DNA of 58,522 bases from Candidatus Levyibacteriota bacterium (lineage in GTDB: Bacteria; Patescibacteriota; Microgenomatia; Levybacterales; UBA12049), in assembly GCA_029260965.1 (NCBI GenBank), contig JAJDCG010000002.1, positions 1 to 58,522 of the forward strand. Direction: 5' to 3'. Of the stretch, positions 1,998 to 29,679 are shown one piece after another (positions within the stretch are counted from its first letter, which is position 1; each line of letters starts with the position of its first letter). The translations under genes and the position numbers were made by a program. Below the pieces are notes generated by a model, which was not told the DNA's origin, did no database searches, and saw only the letters and a program-made list of their open reading frames with translations.

Positions 1998-3392
1998 GTG
2001 GTAAAGGGCTTTATCAAATCATTGGGAGTCAGCTCCCTTCTTTTTTTAAGTAGCGTTGCTCCTGTATTTGCAGAGGTTACAAAAACTGAGTCAGAATCAG
2101 GTGGTGGACATGGTGCTACTGCAGTTGTTTTTCTTTTCCTCGCGATTCTTCTAATTGCATCAAAAATAGGTGGTATTGTTGAGAAAGCAGGTCAACCAGC
2201 AGTTATTGGTGAGATCGCAGCGGGTATTTTTCTCTCATTTCTCGCATTCTCTGGCTTGGGAATAATGGATGATATTCGTCATAGTGAGACTATGGCTTTT
2301 ATTGCAGAGTTTGGTGCTGTTATTCTTCTTTTCCAAATCGGGCTTGAGACAAATATCAAAAAAATGACCAAGGTTGGAGTAAGCGCGCTTCTGGTTGCGA
2401 TTATAGGTGTAGTTCTTCCTTTTGTTTTGGGATCATTTGTTTTCGCGCCACTCCTTTTTCCTGAATCCAGTTTTCCGGCGCGTCTTTTTATCGGAGCATC
2501 TCTGGTTGCAACAAGCGTGGGGATTACTGCTTATGTTTTCAGGGAGATGAAAGTAATCAAGGAGAAATTTGCACAGGTTGTGCTAGGTGCCGCAGTTATT
2601 GACGATGTGCTGGGTCTTCTTGTTCTTGCAGTTATTACAGCTTTAGCATCAGGTGAGGCGGTCAGTCCTGAGTTTGTAGCAATTCTTTCAGCAAAAGCAT
2701 TTGGTTTTCTGGCAGCAGCTGTGATTCTGGGGAATGTATTTGCAAAGACGCTTTCCAAAGGATTTTCAATGATCCATACAGGAACCGGAATGAAGATTAC
2801 ACTTGCTCTTACGTTTGCGCTTGTGTATGCATATGGGGCAACATTGGTGGGTCTGGCTCCAATAGTGGGTGCTTTTGCAGCAGGACTTGTTTTGGATGCG
2901 GTTCATTTCAAAGGATTTGCATTTCCAGAGGTTGTGCATGATCTTCTTTCATTCCGTGGATTTGATAAAAAAGAGAAAGCAAAGATAGAAGCTCTGGTTG
3001 AAAAACATAAAGATACTCATATTGAGGAGTTAATCTCAACACTTGGACTTCTTTTTGTACCGATCTTTTTCGTTTTTACTGGACTTCAGATAGAATTTGC
3101 ATCACTTCTTAATCCAGGGCTCTATGTATCAGCAGCTATTTTGACGGTTGTTGCTTTTTTAACAAAGGCATTTGCAGGAGTTGCTGCATCAGGTTCTGTG
3201 AAAGAAAAAATCCTAGTTGGTGTTTCCATGGTCCCACGTGGTGAGGTGGGTCTTATATTTGCAGCTGTGGGGAAATCAATTGGTGCGATAAATGATGAGC
3301 TTTTTTCAGTAATAATTATAGTGGTTATAGCAACAACTTTTGTAGCACCCCCACTTCTCAAAAATCTTCTTAAAGACTACAAAGTAAAATAA
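1998..3392 (+). CDS. Cation:proton antiporter, CPA2 family (NapA/GerN/KefB-like Na+(K+)/H+ exchanger)
   Basis: About 13 TM segments with motifs GQPAVIGEIAAGI, LLFQIGLET, ATSVGIT, AAVIDDVLG and MVPRGEVGLI. The ORF track starts at TTG 1989, which abuts the -10 box, so GTG 1998 is preferred. Confidence 0.93.
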   Translation: MVKGFIKSLGVSSLLFLSSVAPVFAEVTKTESESGGGHGATAVVFLFLAILLIASKIGGIVEKAGQPAVIGEIAAGIFLSFLAFSGLGIMDDIRHSETMAFIAEFGAVILLFQIGLETNIKKMTKVGVSALLVAIIGVVLPFVLGSFVFAPLLFPESSFPARLFIGASLVATSVGITAYVFREMKVIKEKFAQVVLGAAVIDDVLGLLVLAVITALASGEAVSPEFVAILSAKAFGFLAAAVILGNVFAKTLSKGFSMIHTGTGMKITLALTFALVYAYGATLVGLAPIVGAFAAGLVLDAVHFKGFAFPEVVHDLLSFRGFDKKEKAKIEALVEKHKDTHIEELISTLGLLFVPIFFVFTGLQIEFASLLNPGLYVSAAILTVVAFLTKAFAGVAASGSVKEKILVGVSMVPRGEVGLIFAAVGKSIGAINDELFSVIIIVVIATTFVAPPLLKNLLKDYKVK

Positions 3393-3456
3393 ATATCCTG
3401 TAGTGCCATTATTGTAGCAAGTATAATCTCTGCTAGAGAATAATTAAAAAAAATAC

Positions 3457-3485
3457 TTGAAAAAAATCCTATAATCTGATATAAT
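3457..3485 (+). promoter_or_regulatory. sigma70-type promoter
   Basis: TTGAAA-N17-TATAAT, 14 nt before ATG 3500, with no SD. Confidence 0.7.
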
Positions 3486-3499
3486 TTTTTTATAAAATT

Positions 3500-5950
3500 A
3501 TGATTAATGAGAGAATCGGAAACGACACGCCATCAGAAGAACCCCGCGATGGTAAAGATCTAGGAAAATTGACTAGGAGAGATTTTTTAGGAAAAACTAG
3601 AATAATTTTAACAGGAGCAGCTGCAAACGTGCTGATACCACCTATTTTAAGAGATCCGCTTGTGGCAAGCGCTTCAGAAAAAACACCAGCTGGTCATCTA
3701 CCAGAAAAAGAGCATCATGAAACAACTGACCTCAATGATTGGAGTGCTAGGGTAGTAGTGGGTGGTTTTTTTGGAATTGTGGCGGGTATGATGATTAAAA
3801 AGGTTGAGTTGGGTCCCGGAACAGTAGGGACCATGACAACTCTTGAATCAGCAAGACTTATTGCTCTTAAGAGCTCAAAGAATAAAAGTGATCAGGAGGC
3901 TTTTGGCCATGATATGAAAGAATTAAAAGGCGCATATCCTCTTGTGCCTGTGCTTGTTGAAATCGCACATATTGCAAGCAATATACGGGTAGATGCAAAT
4001 AAAATTTTTGATGAGAGTAATCTTGCAGAGACTGAAAGTGGGTCAATAATGCCATCAGAAGATGCTGAGAAAAAGTCTTGGGAAGAGTTTTATCAAAAGA
4101 CTACCGAAGAGCTTGTTGATTTGATGGCTCAAAGTTCAGCTCTTTCTATGCTCGCACCAATTACAACTACTTATGTTTCTTCGTCTGTGACAAGCAGTAT
4201 GCATCCTGCTATTCTTGAAAAGCTCTACAGGCTTAAATATTCTGAAAATGTTTTGCGAGTTCAGGAGGAGCTAGCGGGGGATAGTCTTAAAGAGGGTGAT
4301 GTGCCACATGCAAATTATTTGAAATCCAAAGCACTGGAAGAGGCACAAAAGGTAATGGATGGAGTTGGTGGAGAGCTTGATCTGATGCTTACTGTCGCGG
4401 GAAATACAAATGGAGACGCAGTCCTCGGTGACCCGCCCAATATTTATTCTTTATTCAAAAAGCCTCAGCATTTCCCTGCTTATTCAGCGATTGGTTTTAC
4501 AACAAGTGAGATTTTGACAACTTGTGCAGCATTGGCATTTCTAAAAAAAGCAGGAGTTCGAGGAGAGACGAAAAAGTTTGTTAAAAGATTCAATGAAGGT
4601 CAAGTCAAAATAATTAAATCAATAAGTCAAACAATTAAAGATAGTAGATTGCGAGATGTATCATTATTTGGAGCAAGGGCCGAAGCGGGAAAACTGTTTA
4701 ACGACTTGCAAAATGTATTGAATGATGAAGGCTTAGAGAGTTTAGAGTCAGATTTAATAAATCAGATAGCATCTATTCCTTCTGGGGCGTTTCGCCTTGA
4801 TGTAAAAACAATCTTGTCTCATCAATGGGATGCGTTTGTGAGAAAAAAGCAAAAAACAAAAGATGATGAGTTAACTGGTGAGAGATTTGATTATGAGTTA
4901 TTCTCTGATCTTCTTCTTCGCAAAGGAAGTCTTCATGGGAAAGGAAGCAAAGACGATAATCAGTCAGAACGAGAGCATGACAGTATTTTAAGGAAAGAGC
5001 TGCTTGGTGCACTAGCGTCACAAGATAGAAAAAAAATTGCAAAATATATAAATAGGATGTTAGATTCTCGAAAAGCAACAACGCAATCAGACTTAGGTGC
5101 TCTTTTTAGTAAGATTATGCAGCAGGAAAATGAAAATGAATTAGTAGGCAAGGATGATTCAGAAATTAAGAACACTTTTCTTCAAGCAATTAAAGAAATG
5201 GCTGCTAACGGACTTTCTAAGAGTGGCCCTGATAAAGCAGAGCTAGAGAGGGCTTTCATGAATGATGATGTCGAGAAGCTTTGGAGTGGACTTTCTGAAA
5301 TTGAAAAAGAAGATGTCAGACAGGCACTAATGATTTCAACAGGTGAGCCGTCTCAACATGAAGAGCCTGGGGATGGTCACGGGCATTCGCAAAATAGAAT
5401 TCTGAGTCATCAGGCTAAAGAAGTACTTGTAGCACTTGATACACAAATCCCTGCAGTTCCTAGTCTTGTTCATTTCGTAAAGCATGATATTTTGCCTCTT
5501 ATTTCCGCAACAACTGACGATCCTGAAAAGAAAATAAAACGAGAACGTGACGCCATTCTATTGATGACCGATTTGATTTCTGCATTTGCTGATAATGTTG
5601 CAGCATATCTTTTTGCATTAGCCTCTTTGGAAGAGTTGTATAAGGAAAATTACGGAGAAGATGTTTTACAGAACAATAAATCACTTGATAGGGCAATTTC
5701 GCTTACTGCAATTTACTCTGCTGTTTTTGGAGGGAGCCTGTCGCTTCTTGGAAACGGTCCCAATTTCCTTCAGGAGAGGCCAGTAGGTGTGATTGATGAT
5801 CAAGGAGAGCTGAGGATTCATACAGAGCCAAGAGCCTTGCCTGACACTCTTAAAAATCCATACGGCTTTGTAGGCTCGGCATTGGTTTTTGGATTTGGAC
5901 GATCTTCAATTGATAATGCAGCTGAAGGACTAGAGCTAGCCTCAGTTTGA
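3500..5950 (+). CDS. Highly diverged ion-transporter (IT) superfamily-like protein (NhaD/ArsB/CitMHS-type motifs) with a large hydrophilic insertion and an N-terminal twin-arginine-like motif
   Basis: LGDPPN, ISAFADNVAAYLF and SAVFGGSLSLLGNGPNF occur in the order expected for IT-superfamily antiporters. TRRDFL lies near the N-terminus. Confidence 0.55.
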   Translation: MINERIGNDTPSEEPRDGKDLGKLTRRDFLGKTRIILTGAAANVLIPPILRDPLVASASEKTPAGHLPEKEHHETTDLNDWSARVVVGGFFGIVAGMMIKKVELGPGTVGTMTTLESARLIALKSSKNKSDQEAFGHDMKELKGAYPLVPVLVEIAHIASNIRVDANKIFDESNLAETESGSIMPSEDAEKKSWEEFYQKTTEELVDLMAQSSALSMLAPITTTYVSSSVTSSMHPAILEKLYRLKYSENVLRVQEELAGDSLKEGDVPHANYLKSKALEEAQKVMDGVGGELDLMLTVAGNTNGDAVLGDPPNIYSLFKKPQHFPAYSAIGFTTSEILTTCAALAFLKKAGVRGETKKFVKRFNEGQVKIIKSISQTIKDSRLRDVSLFGARAEAGKLFNDLQNVLNDEGLESLESDLINQIASIPSGAFRLDVKTILSHQWDAFVRKKQKTKDDELTGERFDYELFSDLLLRKGSLHGKGSKDDNQSEREHDSILRKELLGALASQDRKKIAKYINRMLDSRKATTQSDLGALFSKIMQQENENELVGKDDSEIKNTFLQAIKEMAANGLSKSGPDKAELERAFMNDDVEKLWSGLSEIEKEDVRQALMISTGEPSQHEEPGDGHGHSQNRILSHQAKEVLVALDTQIPAVPSLVHFVKHDILPLISATTDDPEKKIKRERDAILLMTDLISAFADNVAAYLFALASLEELYKENYGEDVLQNNKSLDRAISLTAIYSAVFGGSLSLLGNGPNFLQERPVGVIDDQGELRIHTEPRALPDTLKNPYGFVGSALVFGFGRSSIDNAAEGLELASV

Positions 5951-22646: not shown

Positions 22647-23924
22647 TTATTTTATCAGTTTTTGTAGAGCTGTGAGATAGGATGCCTCTTTGAGACCGGT
22701 TTTATTTTTTGTAGAAACTTTCCAGGTGTTTTCAAAAGCTTTTTCCATGATGTCGGTAAGTCTTTTGAGAACATCTGCTTTTTTATATGTATCATTTTTG
22801 ATGTTTTGCTCCCACTCTAGATAGCTGGCAGCTACCCCACCTGAATTAGCAAGCACGTCAGGGACAATGGTAACACCTTTTTTCTCAAGAAATCTGTAAG
22901 CGTATGGTGTGATGGGATTGTTTGCCATTTCAATTATTATTTTTGCTTTTATGTGTTGCATATTGCTTTCATTTATAACTCCACCTAGTGCTGCAGGAAC
23001 CAGCACGTCAACAGGTAGTTCTAGTAGTGATTTGTTGCTGATCATCCTACCGCCTCTGGTGTCACAAACTCCTCCTGCGCAATAACAACCTGCTAGAGTT
23101 CCTTTTTCCTGTTTGCACTCAAAAACAAGTGGGATATCAAGCGGCAGTAATTCGCCATTTGTTTGTTTGATAACTCCTCCCTGGGAATCTGAAACAGCAA
23201 CAATTTGAAATCCTTTTTCTGATGCAAAGTTTGCAAAATTATACCCGACATTTCCAAATCCCATCACTGCAACAGTTATTTCTCGTGGTTTCATTTTGAG
23301 TTTTTCAGCGATTTTTCCCAGCACTACCGCGCCACCAAAACCCGTTGCGACATTACGGCCGTCAAGTCCGTGTTTGCCCTTGCCGGTAAATGTTGCATAT
23401 GCTTTGTGATCAACGTGTGTGGGATTGTGTTTTTTTGAGAGTCTGACGTATTCATCAGCCATCCAGTCCAGGATCTGGGGATTGGTGTTTACGTCAGGTG
23501 CGGGTATGTCTATGTCGTGTCCAAGTACATGATGGATCTTGCGGACATATTCACGTGCTAGTTCTTCCAATTGGATTGCTGTCAGAGATTTTGGATCTAC
23601 AACGACTCCACCTTTGCCACCGCCAAATTTGACTCCGATTAGAGCTGTTTTGAGAGACATCAGAAGGGAAAGGGTTATTACCTCATCCCGTGTTACTTCT
23701 GGGTGAAATCGAAGCCCTCCTTTGTATGGTCCAAGTGTATTGTCATGTTGAGCCCTATAACCTTTGAAATTTACGATTTCTTCATCAATTTTTATAGGTA
23801 GCGTTACTTCAATAACACGATCTGGTTGAAGAAATGTCTCTACCTTATCAAGGGGGAGGTTGTATTTGGCTGCTATTTCTACAATGTCTTGTTCGATTTT
23901 GTTATATGTGTTTTGATCTGCCAT
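22647..23924 (-). CDS. gdhA: Glu/Leu/Phe/Val dehydrogenase, glutamate dehydrogenase-like
   Basis: GPYKGGLRFH, GGGKGG, DIPAPDVNT, GFGNVG and PDVLANSGGV. Confidence 0.9.
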   Translation of the reverse strand: MADQNTYNKIEQDIVEIAAKYNLPLDKVETFLQPDRVIEVTLPIKIDEEIVNFKGYRAQHDNTLGPYKGGLRFHPEVTRDEVITLSLLMSLKTALIGVKFGGGKGGVVVDPKSLTAIQLEELAREYVRKIHHVLGHDIDIPAPDVNTNPQILDWMADEYVRLSKKHNPTHVDHKAYATFTGKGKHGLDGRNVATGFGGAVVLGKIAEKLKMKPREITVAVMGFGNVGYNFANFASEKGFQIVAVSDSQGGVIKQTNGELLPLDIPLVFECKQEKGTLAGCYCAGGVCDTRGGRMISNKSLLELPVDVLVPAALGGVINESNMQHIKAKIIIEMANNPITPYAYRFLEKKGVTIVPDVLANSGGVAASYLEWEQNIKNDTYKKADVLKRLTDIMEKAFENTWKVSTKNKTGLKEASYLTALQKLIK

Positions 23925-24156
23925 GGGTTTTTAATCCTTGAAATAGTATAGCATAGTACAATTAGCATTGAATAATGCAGATTCTCCAGATAATAAAATC
24001 CGTTGACCACCACGAAGTCGAACAGAAAAGTCGACGCCGCCTAAGTTCTTCTAACTAAAAGTGCCCCAAAATTACTTTGAAAGTCTTCAAATAAATTTGA
24101 ATATTAAATATTGTTGTAGTTATGAGAATGTACTATAATACATGACCATAACCACG

Positions 24157-26088
24157 ATGGCTATAGAATTTAATCGACTGCCTCAGGATGAAGAAAAAAC
24201 TGATGTGTTTAAACCGCGGGCAGTAGCTCCCGTAGAATTTACCACACCTCCTCTTGACAGCAGGAAGAGTTCGGTTCGTAAGCTTTCGCCTGAGGAGTTT
24301 GATGCAAGGAACAGAACTGTTTTAGAAAACTCTTTATTGCCAGGCAGAGTGGCATACTCCCTTACAGGAAGGAGAGATCCCGATCTCAAACAAGTTGGAT
24401 TTCTTGGATTAATCAAGGCTGCCGATAGATTTGATAAAACTCGAGGAGTCCCATTTGAAAACTATGCAGAACGACGCATAAGATGGGAAATCCTGGACTA
24501 CTTTAGAGAGAACAAGCCAGGAGGAGTTAAAGTTTCAAGAGTAGATCAGGAAAGGGTTCAAAAATTAGATGAAGAGGTCCATAGATTAGGAAGAGAGTTG
24601 ACAGTAAGTGAAGCTGCTGCACTTCTGAAGATTTCCAAAAAAAGAGTAAAGAAGGTACCACAGGCTCATGATGCTCGAAAACTTGTCTATTTAGACGGAT
24701 TTATAGAAGACGATGGTGATAGCTGTAATGGAAGTTTTGAGCTCGTAGATTCCAAACAAGACCCAGGAGCGGAAGTGGTAGATAGGATTGCGTTGAGCGA
24801 GGCATTGCGAACATTGGCTGAGGAAGAAAGAGATATACTAATGGCATTTTTTTACGAACATAAAAAGACATCTGAAATTGCTCTAGAGATAGGTAAAAGT
24901 GAGGCGCGCGTTTCTCAACTCAAAAAACAAGCGCTTAGTAAAATGAGGAAGAATTTAGAAAGGACAACAACCCCCTTATTTCCGAAGAGTACAGCATCTG
25001 AAGCTCTGAATGGGATTAAAAGCGGAGCGAGGCAAGCAGAAAATGTAAAAAAGAAAAAAGCTCTTAAGAGAGGGAAGAGGTTTGAAGAAGAATTGAGAGA
25101 AAAACTTAGCACAGACAGGAGAGCAGTAGTTCAGGCAATTCAGCAGCTGTCCCCGCGTGAGAACAGGGTATTAGTTATGTGGCTAGAGGGTAAAAGTTAT
25201 GCGGATATTGGAAAAGCATTGAGCATGCATCCTGGCAGCACTTCAATAATAGTAAAGAGAGCAATAGATTATCTGAAGAATGCAAATAATGTTAATGCGA
25301 TAGGGGAGCTTGGTAACAAAACTAGAAAAAAGAGAATATCTAGATCAAGATTGTCCGCAGAAGACAGGAAGGCTAAAGCTCGCGAATATCAAAAAAAGTT
25401 ATATAAGGAAAAAGAAATAGCAAAAATAGTTGAAGGTGAGGGAGAGCCAGCGACTGAAGGAATAATATTTTTGGATCGGTATGTTGCACAAGAAGCATCA
25501 ATAGCTGATCCCAAGGTTGATGTTGAAACTACAGTAGTAGACCGATTGGCATTGCGTAATGCGATAAAGATATTGCCTGATGATCAAAGAAGGGCAATAT
25601 TCCTAAAATTTTATGAAGGATTTACTCAAGCAGAAATTGGTAGGGAAATGGGGGTAGCGGAGGGGAGTGTCTCAAATATTCTTAAAAGAGCAATCAGTAA
25701 TATAGGTGTAATTTGGGATTTGGAACAGCAAGAACCAATGCAGGGTATTAAAAAATCAAAGAAAGAGTTTTCGCCCGAAGTAAGAGCCAAAGAGGCAGGA
25801 AGTAAAATTAAAGAGATAACCCCACCGCAAGCAACGGATAGAGGCTCCCAAGTAAAGGAAAAGCGAACAAGGTTTTTGGAAGAGATTAATTCTTGGGGGC
25901 AGGTTAATTCGGATGAAGAAAGAGCGGAATTGCTTAGGGGTTTGCTTGAGATGCCGGATTTGCCTTTGCCCTCTGATAAAATAAGAGTAGTTCGTAAATA
26001 TCTAAAAGAAGATAGGCCTCGTCTGGCTGAAAATATGTTGAAAGATTTTTTGAATGCGCCCATACGTAGTAAAAAGAATTTGACATAA
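24157..26088 (+). CDS. sigma70-family (group 3, FliA/SigB/F-like) sigma factor with two additional sigma4-like HTH domains
   Basis: Region 2 (GFLGLIKAADRFDKTRGVPFENYAERRIRWEILDYFRE), region 3 (RELTVSEAAALL), and three region-4 HTHs at aa ~218-270, ~329-378 and ~470-521 of the track ORF. ATG 24142 lies only 2 nt after TATAAT, so ATG 24157 is preferred. Confidence 0.85.
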   Translation: MAIEFNRLPQDEEKTDVFKPRAVAPVEFTTPPLDSRKSSVRKLSPEEFDARNRTVLENSLLPGRVAYSLTGRRDPDLKQVGFLGLIKAADRFDKTRGVPFENYAERRIRWEILDYFRENKPGGVKVSRVDQERVQKLDEEVHRLGRELTVSEAAALLKISKKRVKKVPQAHDARKLVYLDGFIEDDGDSCNGSFELVDSKQDPGAEVVDRIALSEALRTLAEEERDILMAFFYEHKKTSEIALEIGKSEARVSQLKKQALSKMRKNLERTTTPLFPKSTASEALNGIKSGARQAENVKKKKALKRGKRFEEELREKLSTDRRAVVQAIQQLSPRENRVLVMWLEGKSYADIGKALSMHPGSTSIIVKRAIDYLKNANNVNAIGELGNKTRKKRISRSRLSAEDRKAKAREYQKKLYKEKEIAKIVEGEGEPATEGIIFLDRYVAQEASIADPKVDVETTVVDRLALRNAIKILPDDQRRAIFLKFYEGFTQAEIGREMGVAEGSVSNILKRAISNIGVIWDLEQQEPMQGIKKSKKEFSPEVRAKEAGSKIKEITPPQATDRGSQVKEKRTRFLEEINSWGQVNSDEERAELLRGLLEMPDLPLPSDKIRVVRKYLKEDRPRLAENMLKDFLNAPIRSKKNLT

Positions 26089-26107
26089 AACCTTTTTGTG
26101 CTATTAT
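26080..26107 (+). promoter_or_regulatory. sigma70-type promoter of the T-box/proS transcript
   Basis: TTGACA-N16-TATTAT with a TG extension. The -35 box overlaps the last codons of the sigma gene. Confidence 0.7.
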
Positions 26108-26125
26108 AAATTATAAAGCGCCTGA

Positions 26126-26290
26126 GTTTGGTTCCCGCTAAACGAGCTGACTGCGATGAGCAGTACGGACAAAACCGTAAAATGTAATGAGTCCCGATGA
26201 ACAATCGGGAGAAACAAGGTGGTACCACGAGAAATCCTCGTCCTTGTCCCAAATCATTTATTTGATTGGGGATGAAGATGAGGTTTTTTT
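26126..26290 (+). ncRNA. T-box riboswitch (Pro-specific) with ultrashort Stem I
   Basis: T-box AAGG-TGGTACC-ACG (26216-26229). Antiterminator: ACGAG/CTCGT and AAGG/CCTT. Stem III: TCCCGAT/ATCGGGA. A competing 21-bp hairpin (26236-26283) is followed by T7. The mini stem GTTTGG-TTCCCG-CTAAAC carries CCC in its loop. Confidence 0.88.
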
Positions 26291-27997
26291 ATGAAATATT
26301 CACACCTTTTTGGAAAAACAATTAAAGATGTGCCAAAAGATACCAGTTTAACTTCACATAAATTGCTTTATCAAGCAGGATTTATAAGGGAAAGTACAGC
26401 AGGGCGATATTATTTCTTGCCTCTGGGACAAAGAGTTCAGCAGAAAATCATAAAAGTAGTCAAAGAAGAAATGGATCGCGCTGGAGCGCAGGAAATTGTG
26501 GCGCCAATTCTTCATCCGCTTCATTTGTGGCAGGAAACCAACCGTGATAAGGCCGACTTTGGCCTTTTGAAAATAAAGGATAGACGAGAGATGGAATTTG
26601 TTCTTGGCGGGACGGCTGAGGAAATGCTGGTTGATTTGGTGCGTAAGTTTCAAACTAGTTACAAAGACTTGCCTTTTCAACTTTATCAATTTGCATCCAA
26701 ATTCCGAGACGAGCTTCGTGCTCGGGGCGGACTCTTGAGGGTCCGTGAATTTATCATGAAGGATGGATATTCATTTCATGCCTCAGAGAATGATTTCAAG
26801 AAAGAATATAAAAAAATGTCAAAAACTTACACAAAAATATTTGAGCGAGTCGGACTTGAGACGTTCATGGTTGCTGCTGACAACGGCGATATAGGTGGGG
26901 AATATGCCCATGAATTTCAGGTAAAGTCAGGTGCAGGAGAAGATACCATTTTTTATGTTCCATCGAAAAAGCTTTATTTTAATAAGGAAATCGCACCAAC
27001 TATGGCAGCTCCGTTTGACCAGAAAGGCGAGGAGCCAAGACCAATGGAGGATGTTGTTGGAAAAGGAATTATCGGTGTTGAGGCATTAGCAAAATTCTTA
27101 AATATTCCAGTTGAGGCAACAACCAAAACACTTCTTTTTGAAACCGAAAAAGGTGATATTGTCGCAGCAGCAGTAAGAGGGGAATATGATATTGACGAAA
27201 CCAAGCTAAAAAGAGTAATTGGTTGTCAGAGCATTACGTTAATTACGCCTGAGAAGATTAAGGAGCTGACTGGAGCAGAGGTCGGATATGCAGGAATTCT
27301 TAATCTGCCAAAGCATGTAAAAATATTCATGGATGACTCGATGAAAGGAAGAGTAAATTTTGAGATGGGGTCAAATAAAACAGACATACATGTGATTAAT
27401 GTAAATTTTGGACGGGATTTAGAAATGCCTGAAAGATTTTATGATTTCAAAGAAACACGAGCAGGAGATTTTTATCCTGAGACAAAGGAAGCATATGAAA
27501 CTTTTCGTGGAATTGAAGTAGGAAATATTTTTCAGCTTGGTTATCACTATTCAAAAAAAATGAAGGGTGCTACTTTTATCGATGAAGAGGGTAATGAAAA
27601 GCCCTACTATATGGGTTGTTATGGAATAGGAATTGGGCGGACGCTGGCTGCGGTGGTTGAGATAAATCATGATGATAGGGGAATAATATGGCCTGATTCA
27701 ATTGCGCCGTATCAGGTGCATCTGATAGGAATTACGAATAATGAATCAAAAATTAGGCAAGAAGCAGATGAAATTTATGAGAAATTGCAGGATGCGGGAA
27801 TTGAAGTTTTATACGACGATCGGGAAGATGCATCAATTGGCAACAAATTTGCTGATGCTGATCTGATTGGAATCCCTGTGCGTTTGGTTGTCAGTAAAAA
27901 AACTGGGGACAAAATAGAGTGGAAAAAAAGAACAGAGAAGGAATCAGAATTGTTGAATTTTGACGAAGTGCTGGGAAGAATAAAGAAGCAAGGTTAA
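26291..27997 (+). CDS. proS: Proline--tRNA ligase (bacterial type with editing insertion)
   Basis: FRDELRARGGLLRVREFIMKD, GIEVGNIFQLG, MGCYGIG and an anticodon-binding domain (KFADADLIGIP). Confidence 0.98.
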   Translation: MKYSHLFGKTIKDVPKDTSLTSHKLLYQAGFIRESTAGRYYFLPLGQRVQQKIIKVVKEEMDRAGAQEIVAPILHPLHLWQETNRDKADFGLLKIKDRREMEFVLGGTAEEMLVDLVRKFQTSYKDLPFQLYQFASKFRDELRARGGLLRVREFIMKDGYSFHASENDFKKEYKKMSKTYTKIFERVGLETFMVAADNGDIGGEYAHEFQVKSGAGEDTIFYVPSKKLYFNKEIAPTMAAPFDQKGEEPRPMEDVVGKGIIGVEALAKFLNIPVEATTKTLLFETEKGDIVAAAVRGEYDIDETKLKRVIGCQSITLITPEKIKELTGAEVGYAGILNLPKHVKIFMDDSMKGRVNFEMGSNKTDIHVINVNFGRDLEMPERFYDFKETRAGDFYPETKEAYETFRGIEVGNIFQLGYHYSKKMKGATFIDEEGNEKPYYMGCYGIGIGRTLAAVVEINHDDRGIIWPDSIAPYQVHLIGITNNESKIRQEADEIYEKLQDAGIEVLYDDREDASIGNKFADADLIGIPVRLVVSKKTGDKIEWKKRTEKESELLNFDEVLGRIKKQG

Positions 27998-28113: not shown

Positions 28114-28614
28114 TTAGAATGAAAGACCGGGGATTGAGAGGTCAAATATCCTCATCCAAAAAAATGCATAGACCAAGAAGAATACTGCAGATCCAAGGAT
28201 ATAAAAGATGCGAAGTAGTGTGTCATGACCTGATTTGGGCTGTACAACAACATTGTTTTCTGGAAGTGGTTCAGAAATAGTCACAGTTTGTGTTTGGGGA
28301 TCTCTTTCTTCAGACGTTTGCGTAGTGGGAGGCATGTTCCCATCAGGAGTTGAGCTTAGCTGTGTATTGTTATCTGAAACTCCTGCGGGATTTTGTATTT
28401 GAGCTTCGGTGTGTGGCTGGGTGGTGTCTGTTGTTGCCATATTTATGTCTTGAAGCGTACTTGTAGGCGTGCTTTGAGCGTGGCTTTGTTCAGCTTCGTC
28501 TTTCTCTCCTGGGGTTGCTGCTGGAGGAGTGGGGTTTGCAGGTTTGGCGCCCATCACTCTTTCGTAGGTCTCTTTTAATTTTGGGTCAAGATTGCTTAGT
28601 GTTTGTGGATCCAT
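28114..28614 (-). CDS. Hypothetical protein: short N-terminal helix, disordered T/Q/P-rich linker, C-terminal TM anchor
   Basis: MDPQTLSNLDPKLKETYERVMG...ILGSAVFFLVYAFFW. The start is taken at the internal ATG. Confidence 0.75.
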   Translation of the reverse strand: MDPQTLSNLDPKLKETYERVMGAKPANPTPPAATPGEKDEAEQSHAQSTPTSTLQDINMATTDTTQPHTEAQIQNPAGVSDNNTQLSSTPDGNMPPTTQTSEERDPQTQTVTISEPLPENNVVVQPKSGHDTLLRIFYILGSAVFFLVYAFFWMRIFDLSIPGLSF

Positions 28615-28782
28615 AGTAGGCTTAATTATATCTTCTTGGATTTGGGAAAGTTTGTCAAGTTCTGGTTTTGGATTTATTGATGTGAAATAATGCTGACATT
28701 TTTGAACTTGATATTCAAGATCGGGAATTTCATATTTTCCACGTAAATAAATCAAAATTATCAGTATGCTATACTACTTCTT

Positions 28783-29679
28783 GTGAAGATAATTGTGACA
28801 CATGTTTCTCCTGATTGGGATGCAATAGGTTCTGTTTGGGTTGCGAAGAAGTTTCTCCCTGGGTGGCAAGACGCAGAGGTTAGGTTTGTGCCTGCAGGGG
28901 ATCGCATAGGCAAAACCAAGGGTAAGGATGTCCAGGATCCTATAGAGATGATAGGTGAGGATGAAGTGATACAGGTTGATACCGGAATGGGCCCACTTGA
29001 CCATCATCAGACATCAGACCGTCAGGTTTGTGGCGCGTCTCGTACTTGGGATTTTGTAAGTTCTCAGCTTGAGGAAAAGGGACAGCATTTGACAGACATA
29101 CATAGAGAATCAGTTGATCGCATCATGAAAGTCATAACTGAGATCGATCACTTTAGAGAAGTTTTTTGGGCAGATCCAGCAGCGGATCAGTATGAGTTTT
29201 CATTGATCGGAGTTTTGGAAGGGCTCAAGTACGCAAAGCCCATGCAGGATGATTTTTATGTGAAGTTTGGGATTGAATGTCTGGATGCGCTTTTTCATGA
29301 ATTTGAAAGCAGAATTTGGGCAGAGCGGGAAATAAAAGAAAAAGGAATTGAGTTTGAAACGTCCAAGGGGCGCGCGCTTGGCGTAGAGACTATGAATGAG
29401 CAAGTTCTCAAACTTGGTCAAAAAATAGGTTATCAATTGGTGGTCAAAAAAGATCCTAGACGAGGTAATGTAGCAATCAAAACCCTTCCTGAAACGCCTG
29501 ATAATGAAGGAATAGATCTGACATCTGCACACGACCAGCTTTCCAAAATGGATCCTGATGCTACTTGGTATCTGCACGTTTCCAAAAAAATGTTACTAAA
29601 TGGTTCGTCCAAAAATCCCAAAATGAAACCAACCAAGTTGAAATTGGATGATATAATAAAAGTGTTGGAGAGAATTTAA
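28783..29679 (+). CDS. DHH-like phosphoesterase family protein
   Basis: THVSPDWDA, VDTG and DHH motifs. GTG start 7 nt after TGC-TATACT. Confidence 0.65.
   Translation: MKIIVTHVSPDWDAIGSVWVAKKFLPGWQDAEVRFVPAGDRIGKTKGKDVQDPIEMIGEDEVIQVDTGMGPLDHHQTSDRQVCGASRTWDFVSSQLEEKGQHLTDIHRESVDRIMKVITEIDHFREVFWADPAADQYEFSLIGVLEGLKYAKPMQDDFYVKFGIECLDALFHEFESRIWAEREIKEKGIEFETSKGRALGVETMNEQVLKLGQKIGYQLVVKKDPRRGNVAIKTLPETPDNEGIDLTSAHDQLSKMDPDATWYLHVSKKMLLNGSSKNPKMKPTKLKLDDIIKVLERI

Follow-up and report, generated by a model that had tools for sequence, protein, structure and literature searches.

We analyzed a stretch of 58,522 nucleotides from a Candidatus Levyibacteriota bacterium, which is uncultured and ultra-small (GenBank assembly GCA_029260965.1, contig JAJDCG010000002.1, positions 1 to 58,522), here called the window, which carries a sigma factor gene directly upstream of proS. 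Sigma70-family factors are defined by one sigma4 domain, which recognizes the -35 box and binds the beta-flap of RNA polymerase. The product of the gene in the window is almost certainly a real sigma factor with three sigma4-type domains. As listed in Table 1, a core with the canonical sigma4 (module 1) is followed by a second helix-turn-helix (HTH) module (HTH2), a third (HTH3) that is preceded by a sigma3.2-like segment, and a C-terminal four-helix domain. A second protein with two extra sigma4-like HTHs, P0106 (618 amino acids [aa]; Logan SRR28521206, locus L001), was found in a different sample. The start at 24142 is the choice of both gene callers on record. The second in-frame ATG, at 24157 (Met6), is a plausible alternative start, since a TATAAT hexamer (24134-24139) stands only 2 nt ahead of the first.

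Table 1. Features of the sigma factor gene and its borders in the window. ORF, open reading frame; pLDDT, predicted local distance difference test score of the AlphaFold2 model.
Feature	Position	Strand	Remarks
Whole sigma ORF	24142..26088	+	Stop codon included; 648 aa; one unbroken frame
N-terminal region, aa 1-49	24142..24288	+	Predicted disordered, pLDDT 43-46; no Pfam domain; no signal peptide
sigma2 (regions 2.1-2.4), aa ~50-125	24289..24516	+	Sigma70_r2; pLDDT 91-98
sigma3, aa ~133-179	24538..24678	+	Three helices, pLDDT 87-94; SigB/F/G profile coverage
sigma3.2 linker, aa 180-207	24679..24762	+	Acidic, net -6; low-to-medium pLDDT
sigma4 module 1 (canonical region 4), aa 208-275	24763..24966	+	Sigma70_r4; pLDDT 97-98
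Linker 1, aa 276-325	24967..25116	+	Net +6, KKKKALKRGKR, LNGIK motif; low pLDDT, partly helical
HTH2 (sigma4/LuxR-like four-helix), aa 326-380	25117..25281	+	pI 10.3, net +5; pLDDT 84-91
Linker 2, aa 381-435	25282..25446	+	aa 383-430 Lys/Arg-rich, net +10; low-confidence long helices
sigma3.2-like segment of module 3, aa 436-460 (IIFLDRYVAQEAS...)	25447..25521	+	Acidic; pLDDT <50
HTH3 (sigma4-type four-helix), aa 461-529	25522..25728	+	Slightly acidic, pI 5.3; pLDDT 86-95
Linker 3, aa 530-566	25729..25839	+	Predicted disordered, pLDDT 35-53
C-terminal four-helix domain, aa 567-638	25840..26055	+	pLDDT 90-95 in full model
Candidate sigma-gene promoter region	24077..24139	+	TTGAAA-17-AATATT (9/12 match); TTGTTG-17-TATAAT; weak evidence
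yggT-like remnant, last ~18 codons (IMQILQIIKSVDHHEVEQ, tblastn)	23972..24025	+	81% DNA identity to 3' end of L082 gene
proS promoter	26080..26107	+	Near-consensus TTGACA-16-TATTAT with TG; -35 box inside last sigma codons
T-box leader of proS	26114..26248	+	RF00230, 50.2 bits, E 1.9e-9, below gathering score 93

The protein was scanned with Pfam both whole and cut into isolated segments, and NCBIfam profiles were also used. The whole-protein scan returned Sigma70_r2, a weak Sigma70_r3, and several stretches of Sigma70_r4 or Sigma70_r4_2; region 1 domains were absent. Sigma70_r2 matched aa 69-125 with 43 bits (cut-off, 24), and in the isolated segment of module 1, Sigma70_r4 matched aa 221-270 with 46.4 bits, a sigma4 in its expected place after sigma2 and sigma3. 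Although Sigma70_r3 reached only 19.7 bits, under its cut-off of 25.3, the sigma3 typical of group 3 was recognized by profile coverage and three confidently predicted helices. The general sigma70 model TIGR02937 was passed (144.5 bits versus 42.9). Since sigma2, sigma4, and the family model were all found, these profiles make the protein a member of the sigma70 family. The SigB/F/G profile TIGR02980 aligned aa 60-272 with its positions 9-226 of 227 (E 1.7e-49), but the score of 168.6 missed the curated subfamily threshold of 234.35, and TIGR02479 (FliA/WhiG) scored 149.8 against a cut-off of 189.6. The window protein thus shares the sigma2-sigma3-sigma3.2-sigma4 core of the group 3 sigmas (SigB/SigF/SigG, FliA/WhiG), but its gene has neither an anti-sigma gene of the RsbW/SpoIIAB type nor a flagellar or sporulation context, and whereas group 3 sigmas ordinarily measure 240-260 aa, it adds a C-terminal extension of 370 aa. 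Because the cut-offs were missed and the context is lacking, the predicted core architecture is group-3-like but lies outside the curated SigB/F/G and FliA/WhiG subfamilies. The closest solved relatives of the core by sequence were SigF and FliA, and the full AlphaFold2 model matched SigB, sigma28, and SigA chains in the PDB.

The core was checked at 35 alignment positions with a conservation of 75% or more among 77 ordinary relatives. The consensus residue was kept at 31 of these positions in the window protein and at 30 in P0106. At aa 115 (24484-24486), within the I-x-G-E-I motif of region 2.3, a Trp takes the place of a Gly that is 99% conserved among the 77 sigmas and is retained in P0106. 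Nothing that we observed argues against a working core, which is predicted to be functional. A first examination of the DNA, made without database searches (the sequence-only reading), had described a complete sigma2-sigma3-sigma4 core, and the HMMs (hidden Markov models), the profile comparison, and the structure prediction all agree with it. The same reading had also speculated on an exported factor acting on host RNA polymerase. This idea found no support: a hydrophobic stretch resembling a signal peptide is missing from the polar, disordered N-terminus, and no secretion context was seen.

Both extra HTHs passed sigma4 thresholds when scanned alone. HTH2 (aa ~327-380) scored 28.6 bits with Sigma70_r4_2 (cut-off, 25.7) and 24.7 bits with Sigma70_r4 (cut-off, 24.1). 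Its GerE score was 22.9 bits alone (cut-off, 23.5) and 34.3 bits summed over the whole protein, and its nearest solved sequences were the sigma4 of WhiG (E 0.0016) and then RcsB (E 0.034). HTH3 (aa 469-521) scored 49.4 bits with Sigma70_r4_2 and 45.2 bits with Sigma70_r4; it also gave a PhyR_sigma-like match of 23.9-26.5 bits, under the cut-off of 27. In hhalign comparisons with a profile built from 60 ordinary group-3 sigmas, the probability was 98% for module 3 together with its lead-in and 92.8% for module 2. The proposal of the sequence-only reading that the second and third HTHs are sigma4 folds therefore stood, in agreement with the four-helix pattern predicted by AlphaFold2.

We compared the modules with each other. 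The sigma3.2-like segment, aa 436-460, aligned both with aa 181-207 of the core and with the sigma3.2 of ordinary sigmas. Between aa 181-270 and aa 441-522, identity was 31% over 88 aa (E 5e-14), in an alignment that spans LVYLD/IIFLD and VVDR[IL]AL. Given this match, LVYLD/IIFLD segment included, the second sigma3.2-sigma4 module is, by sequence comparison, real and homologous to that of the core; the initial description of a duplicated module was right about the homology, but "near copy" was an overstatement. HTH2 and HTH3 were 37% identical over 57 aa (E 1e-8), and BLAST gave no alignment of HTH1 with HTH2. Module 1 was only the fourth-ranked match of module 3, the sigma4 of some other sigmas being at least as close. 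Internal duplication is consequently not proven, and a fragment captured from another sigma gene would look the same. For a hidden second sigma2 or sigma3 in the extension we make no claim: the hhalign alignment was collinear over aa 319-526 and confident for the sigma3.2-sigma4 part only.

AlphaFold2 was run on an alignment of 79 sequences, in which the core is well covered and the extension is covered through P0106 alone. The core (aa 50-275) was predicted with a pLDDT of mostly 91-98. All three sigma4-type modules displayed the same four-helix pattern (16/12/8/22, 9/11/7/17, and 16/12/8/23 residues), with a pLDDT of 84-98 overall. The N-terminus and the linkers remained under 50, and the predicted template modeling score (pTM) of the full model was 0.35, so that no fixed domain arrangement is predicted. 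Judged from this pTM and the low-confidence linkers, the extension shows no sign of docking onto the core. The C-terminal domain modeled alone reached a pLDDT of 87 and a pTM of 0.75. The last 113 aa had no Pfam match, a PDB sequence search was negative, and fold searches of the PDB and BFVD were negative as well (best E >1). The helical domain of unknown type noted at the C-terminus thus corresponds to a confident four-helix fold for which Pfam, the PDB, and BFVD hold no match. P0106 does not have it.

The gene was recovered twice. A Logan contig from a separate assembly (SRR15505512), which may derive from the same sample, encodes an identical 648-aa protein, with gdh again adjacent. The composition of the ORF was uniform, without frame break, and its flanks were clean when compared with relatives. 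By codon-usage distance to the rest of the window, the gene ranked 16th of 32 genes, and its GC content at third codon positions (GC3) was 0.32, in the mid-range. As far as these tools reach, it is strongly supported that the gene is real and intact and no assembly chimera; the chimera that the sequence-only reading had named as a possible refutation is contradicted by the independent assembly, the codon usage, and the layout of P0106. Because its codon usage is fully host-like, the gene appears to be a long-standing resident of the host genome. Recent horizontal transfer was unsupported, codon usage and GC3 being typical of the window. An origin in phages or plasmids was rejected as unsupported too: a scan of viral contigs was empty, PHROGs gave generic sigma families only, and tblastn of the extension against phages and plasmids matched only the sigma4 of ordinary sigmas. 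A link to defense systems was likewise dropped, as the PADLOC matches (MzaA, Csa3, and CARF) were weak, at 20-36 bits.

We searched 1.84 billion cluster representatives exhaustively with phmmer. This search yielded 18,919 matches at E <=0.001 and 2,243 at E <=1e-10, and the query itself was the sole match below 1e-30. The next-best matches were ordinary group-3 sigmas of 240-260 aa, 33-39% identical, which cover aa ~55-272 only. Architecture was inspected in the best 150 of the 2,243 matches. Among these the layout proposed by the sequence-only reading was confined to the window protein and P0106: exactly 2 of 153 collected proteins had three strong sigma4 modules by the sigma4 HMM, and Pfam agreed. 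Since the best 150 of the 2,243 matches were inspected, the defensible claim is that the predicted triple-sigma4 architecture is very rare and occurs in at least two proteins.

No further members were found in the protein collection, reference genomes, viral contigs, phages, or plasmids. A word-indexed homology search with the full protein gave 4 matches only, words from the low-complexity linkers having apparently swamped the candidates. A two-sequence profile trimmed of linkers recovered only ordinary sigmas of the FliA/SigB type; its best match, P0274, belongs to a normal RsbV-RsbW-SigB operon (STAS-HATPase_c_2-sigma) of another organism. The scan of reference genomes with the two-protein alignment, whose back-translated patterns were generic region-2 motifs, returned 80 ordinary sigmas (Actinomycetota, Clostridia, and others) and no relative from the candidate phyla radiation (CPR). 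Our literature searches turned up neither a sigma with several sigma4 domains nor any work on sigma factors of Microgenomates. For the predicted layout of the extension (HTH; sigma3.2-like segment plus sigma4; four-helix domain), we could find no described counterpart. The other long matches were sigmas fused to STAS, GGDEF, PilZ, or HicB at the C-terminus or to a GT4 glycosyltransferase at the N-terminus (fused group-3 sigmas: P0019, P0078, P0020, P0107, P0087, P0046, P0032, and P0064). C-terminal fusions on group-3 sigmas seem more varied than the literature, centered on extracytoplasmic function (ECF) sigmas, implies.

P0106 resembles the window protein in its group-3-like core and two extra sigma4-like HTHs, and its gene, on a CPR contig syntenic with the window, immediately precedes proS, as the one in the window does. 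Moreover, the motif LNG[IV]K after module 1 was seen in these two proteins and in none of the other 210 among 212 sigmas. The two proteins nevertheless differ considerably. They are ~30% identical, P0106 carries a 160-aa N-terminal extension, and its linkers are neutral and its HTH2 acidic (net -4), whereas the linkers and HTH2 of the window protein are basic. Within the collected set, neither core had the other as its best match (ranks 170th and 124th of 211). The two extra modules of P0106 were each other's best match (38.5 bits), HTH3 of the window protein was a near-best match of its own HTH2, and module 3 of P0106 has no clear sigma3.2-like segment. Strict orthology was therefore rejected: synteny, layout, and one motif speak for it, and core ranking and module comparison against it. 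As far as sequences can tell, the two are probably orthologous and diverge fast.

The neighbors of the sigma gene within about 6 kb on either side are all housekeeping or metabolic genes (M50 peptidase, pgl, zwf, gnd, gdh, proS, and dnaX). The sequence-only reading had noted that no flagellar, sporulation, or anti-sigma genes lie nearby, and there are indeed none within this distance; the 58.5-kb window contains no second sigma. The order in L001 (gnd, sigma, proS, a small minus-strand ORF, an ORF of ~299 aa, HIT, S21, YbeY, DnaX, and YbaB) is identical in the window. The prolyl-tRNA synthetase (ProRS) of the window has relatives of 61-85% identity, some of which are named Levybacteria, Daviesbacteria, or Microgenomates by their sources, and the sequence of the window is consistent with an origin in the CPR. 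By ProRS identity, the closest relatives were L082 (85%), L083 (83%), L085 (81%), and L086 (77%). All four keep the neighborhood, with no sigma upstream of proS and not even a six-frame remnant of one; in L082, L083, and L085, a YggT-like membrane protein of 155-198 aa is encoded at this position. Of 80 metagenomic proS loci, 43 extended 1.9 kb or more upstream; a sigma within 5 kb was seen in none of them.

The window retains a yggT-like remnant, which marks the left edge of the sigma cassette; the rest of that gene was seemingly lost beside the inverted gdh. On the right, homology to relatives resumes at 26102-26108, within the proS promoter/T-box leader. Because of these two edges, the comparison identifies the sigma gene and its upstream region as a clean, accessory single-gene indel of ~2.06 kb in a CPR genome of the Microgenomates type. 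Flanking proteins of L001 were 59% (hyp298) and 52% (DnaX) identical to those of the window, which makes them as similar as those of the sigma-less L083, L085, and L086 (61-65% and 48-52%). That the sigma gene evolves fast and is patchily distributed is strongly supported by these comparisons. In our reading, the locus would have housed this accessory gene for a long time, while the gene diverged quickly, its HTH repeats were reshuffled or homogenized, and losses were frequent; as an alternative history, it may have been gained independently at a variable hotspot. The indel of ~2 kb may reflect either a gain or repeated loss.

Several other features of the region were recorded. The T-box leader belongs to proS and not to the sigma gene; it is visible in L083 and L085. 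In L085, the leader sits upstream of an ornithine cyclodeaminase gene that directly precedes proS, an arrangement with which a proline-responsive T-box would be in keeping. No T-box leader was seen in L001, whose 404-aa ProRS (2560-3774) has no editing (INS) domain; that of the window (26291-27997) has 568 aa and contains INS. The two are 45% identical over the first 234 aa, and the other flanking genes 52-59%. The position of gdh (22647-23924 on the minus strand of the window) relative to pgl-zwf-gnd varies in the otherwise syntenic L082, L083, and L085, and gdh is absent from the L083 stretch. Comparison of the loci indicates that the region upstream of proS is rearrangement-prone. Downstream of proS lie a 213-aa ORF (28114-28755, minus strand) with a Pro/Thr-rich stretch, a C-terminal hydrophobic segment, and no Pfam match, and a 298-aa ORF (28783-29679, plus strand), also without a Pfam match, which is 59-85% identical across relatives. 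Both keep their syntenic place in every relative examined, whether or not it has the sigma, and are lineage-specific genes untied to it. The window starts with a partial 16S rRNA (1-1020) and two tRNAs (1576-1648 and 1848-1920), followed by protein-coding ORFs. No 23S rRNA match was found anywhere in its 58.5 kb, and the rRNA genes therefore look unlinked.

How might such a protein work? The core would engage RNA polymerase as an ordinary group-3 sigma does: sigma2 would contact the clamp and the -10 element, sigma3.2 would occupy the RNA exit path, and module 1 would bind the beta-flap and the -35 element. In sigma70 holoenzyme structures, the C-terminus of sigma4 faces the DNA upstream of -35. 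Because it points there, HTH2 and HTH3, on linkers of ~50 and ~80 residues, would hang over this upstream DNA. They could act as built-in readers of upstream elements, like a fused activator or the contact between the C-terminal domain of the alpha subunit and the UP element. Where transcription factors are few, as in this organism, such readers would increase affinity or specificity. As to the C-terminal domain, it may be a lineage-specific add-on for partner binding or regulation. We lean, tentatively and with somewhat less than even confidence, toward extra HTHs that serve as tethered readers of upstream DNA, one of several roles (besides alternative -35 specificities and built-in decoys or regulators) that the sequence-only reading had suggested. 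This reading is favored because the linkers and HTH2 are strongly basic and because AlphaFold2 docks no part of the extension on the core. The basic linkers remarked on in the sequence-only reading were confirmed, and the net charges of linker 1, HTH2, and linker 2 (+6, +5, and +10) are as expected for DNA contact. We also counted in its favor that no anti-sigma or partner gene lies nearby.

A number of observations weigh against tethered readers. Four TTGAAW boxes stand upstream of the gene, and the hexamer is no commoner in the window than in shuffled sequence. The arguments from basic linkers are weakened because P0106, the sole other family member, has neutral linkers, so that the basic character is not conserved; HTH3 of the window protein is itself slightly acidic. 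Counterpart extra modules of the two proteins align with at most 5 bits, whereas those within each protein are alike, and modules that are not conserved one for one would fit weak or shifting constraint as well as function. The retained sigma3.2-like segment would have no obvious role in a reader of upstream DNA. Finally, no sigma of any kind was present at the 46 related proS loci with enough upstream sequence, which makes the gene dispensable. As a separate candidate, repeated upstream boxes for the extra HTHs were sought and rejected: the paired TTGAAW pattern was found 2 times versus 2.3 expected, which is chance level. It is possible, though doubtful, that the protein is a sigma carrying its own activator, either by extended reading of multi-box promoters or by takeover of the beta-flap by module 3, which would switch -35 specificity; in both cases a single polypeptide would do so with no separate transcription factor.

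The extra HTHs may be involved in protein contacts rather than DNA reading. Sigma-like domains can serve as protein-binding mimics; the sigma-like domain of PhyR is a sigma mimic that serves as an anti-anti-sigma. PhyR resembles our case in using a sigma4-like domain otherwise than for -35 reading, and the PhyR_sigma-like match of HTH3, although below the cut-off, leaves room for such mimicry. Conversely, PhyR-type proteins combine a receiver domain with a NepR partner, and the window protein has no receiver and no NepR-like neighbor. HTHs of the LuxR/GerE/FixJ type (e.g., RcsB) are another likeness: HTH2 is also a four-helix HTH, with a GerE score that nearly equals its sigma4 score. Those HTHs are, however, fused to a receiver or ligand domain, whereas HTH2 is fused to a sigma and is matched better by the sigma4 of WhiG.

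More generally, the C-terminal extension could be a built-in regulatory module (autoinhibitor, decoy, or partner-binding unit) standing in for an anti-sigma. Activity would then be gated by contacts that an extra sigma4-like or the C-terminal domain makes with the core sigma domains, with a sigma4-binding protein, or with the beta-flap. We regard this as unlikely, though several points speak for it: no anti-sigma gene lies nearby, HTH3 and the HTH2 of P0106 are acidic and ill-suited to DNA binding, and the C-terminal domain forms a compact bundle of helices similar in size to anti-sigma domains. There is also an established theme of fused C-terminal extensions that replace anti-sigma factors, as in ECF41 (SnoaL-like), ECF42 (TPR), and ECF238 CorE (Cys-rich), where they modulate their own sigma (PMC8999054). 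These sigmas likewise have a large C-terminal extension and no adjoining anti-sigma gene. They are, however, sigma2-sigma4 proteins without sigma3 whose extensions bind ligands or partners, whereas the window protein has sigma3 and an extension of sigma4-type HTHs, and Pfam found no SnoaL, TPR, or Cys-rich domain in it. With its sigma3 and a different sort of extension, the protein does not belong to the ECF sigmas that carry regulatory extensions of a known type. Known extensions are of these three types on ECF sigmas, not extra sigma4 copies on a group-3-like sigma (PMC8999054). Furthermore, AlphaFold2 packs no extension on the core, and the C-terminal domain matches no anti-sigma fold and is absent from P0106.

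It is comparably improbable that the protein is an evolutionary leftover, that is, a dispensable sigma with HTH fragments gained by partial tandem duplication or fusion, of little specific function and in the course of being lost. The absence of the gene from all sampled close relatives (ProRS 77-85% identical) would fit this idea, as would the divergence of the family: among the 1.84 billion representatives, homologs are at most ~37% identical, and the two members are ~30% identical versus 52-59% for flanking genes. The extra modules are not conserved one for one, and a nearly invariant Gly of region 2.3 is replaced by Trp. On the other side, the 648-codon ORF is intact in a streamlined genome, with host-like codon usage; every folded module is predicted with high confidence; and the layout persists at the same locus in two diverged lineages.

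A two-in-one sigma, in which the module of aa 436-529 can take the place of module 1 at both the beta-flap and the RNA exit path, giving the factor two alternative -35 specificities, seems very unlikely. Module 3 keeps a recognizable sigma3.2-like lead-in and a sigma4, it is homologous to module 1 and to the sigma3.2-sigma4 of SigB/F/G-type sigmas, and to our knowledge sigma3.2 has no role outside the polymerase, all of which would suit such a factor. However, module 3 lies ~160 residues past module 1 with no second sigma2 or sigma3 in register, the hhalign alignment upstream of IIFLD is of low confidence only, the sigma3.2-like part is predicted disordered (pLDDT <50) and is not clear in module 3 of P0106, and we found no precedent in the literature. 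That two or three genes were wrongly joined by assembly or annotation is barely credible: both proteins are singletons in the protein collection and the source is metagenomic, but an independent assembler gave the identical protein (although the sample may be the same), P0106, which stems from another sample, shares length class and layout, and frame, composition, and flanks are in order.

A natural sigma with three sigma4-type domains, one of them with a sigma3.2-like lead-in, tests the rule of one sigma4 per sigma factor. Its value is tempered by the fact that there are two metagenomic examples only, that the gene is dispensable in close relatives, and that its role is predicted from sequence and models. 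The window protein nonetheless offers a ready experimental system, as truncations can be assayed with core RNA polymerase. They could ask whether the extra sigma4 copies lengthen promoter recognition, switch specificity, or self-regulate. The protein also bears on gene control in CPR bacteria, which have very few transcription factors. If true, a self-activating sigma would be a new way to build promoter specificity, evolved in the genome-reduced bacteria of the CPR.

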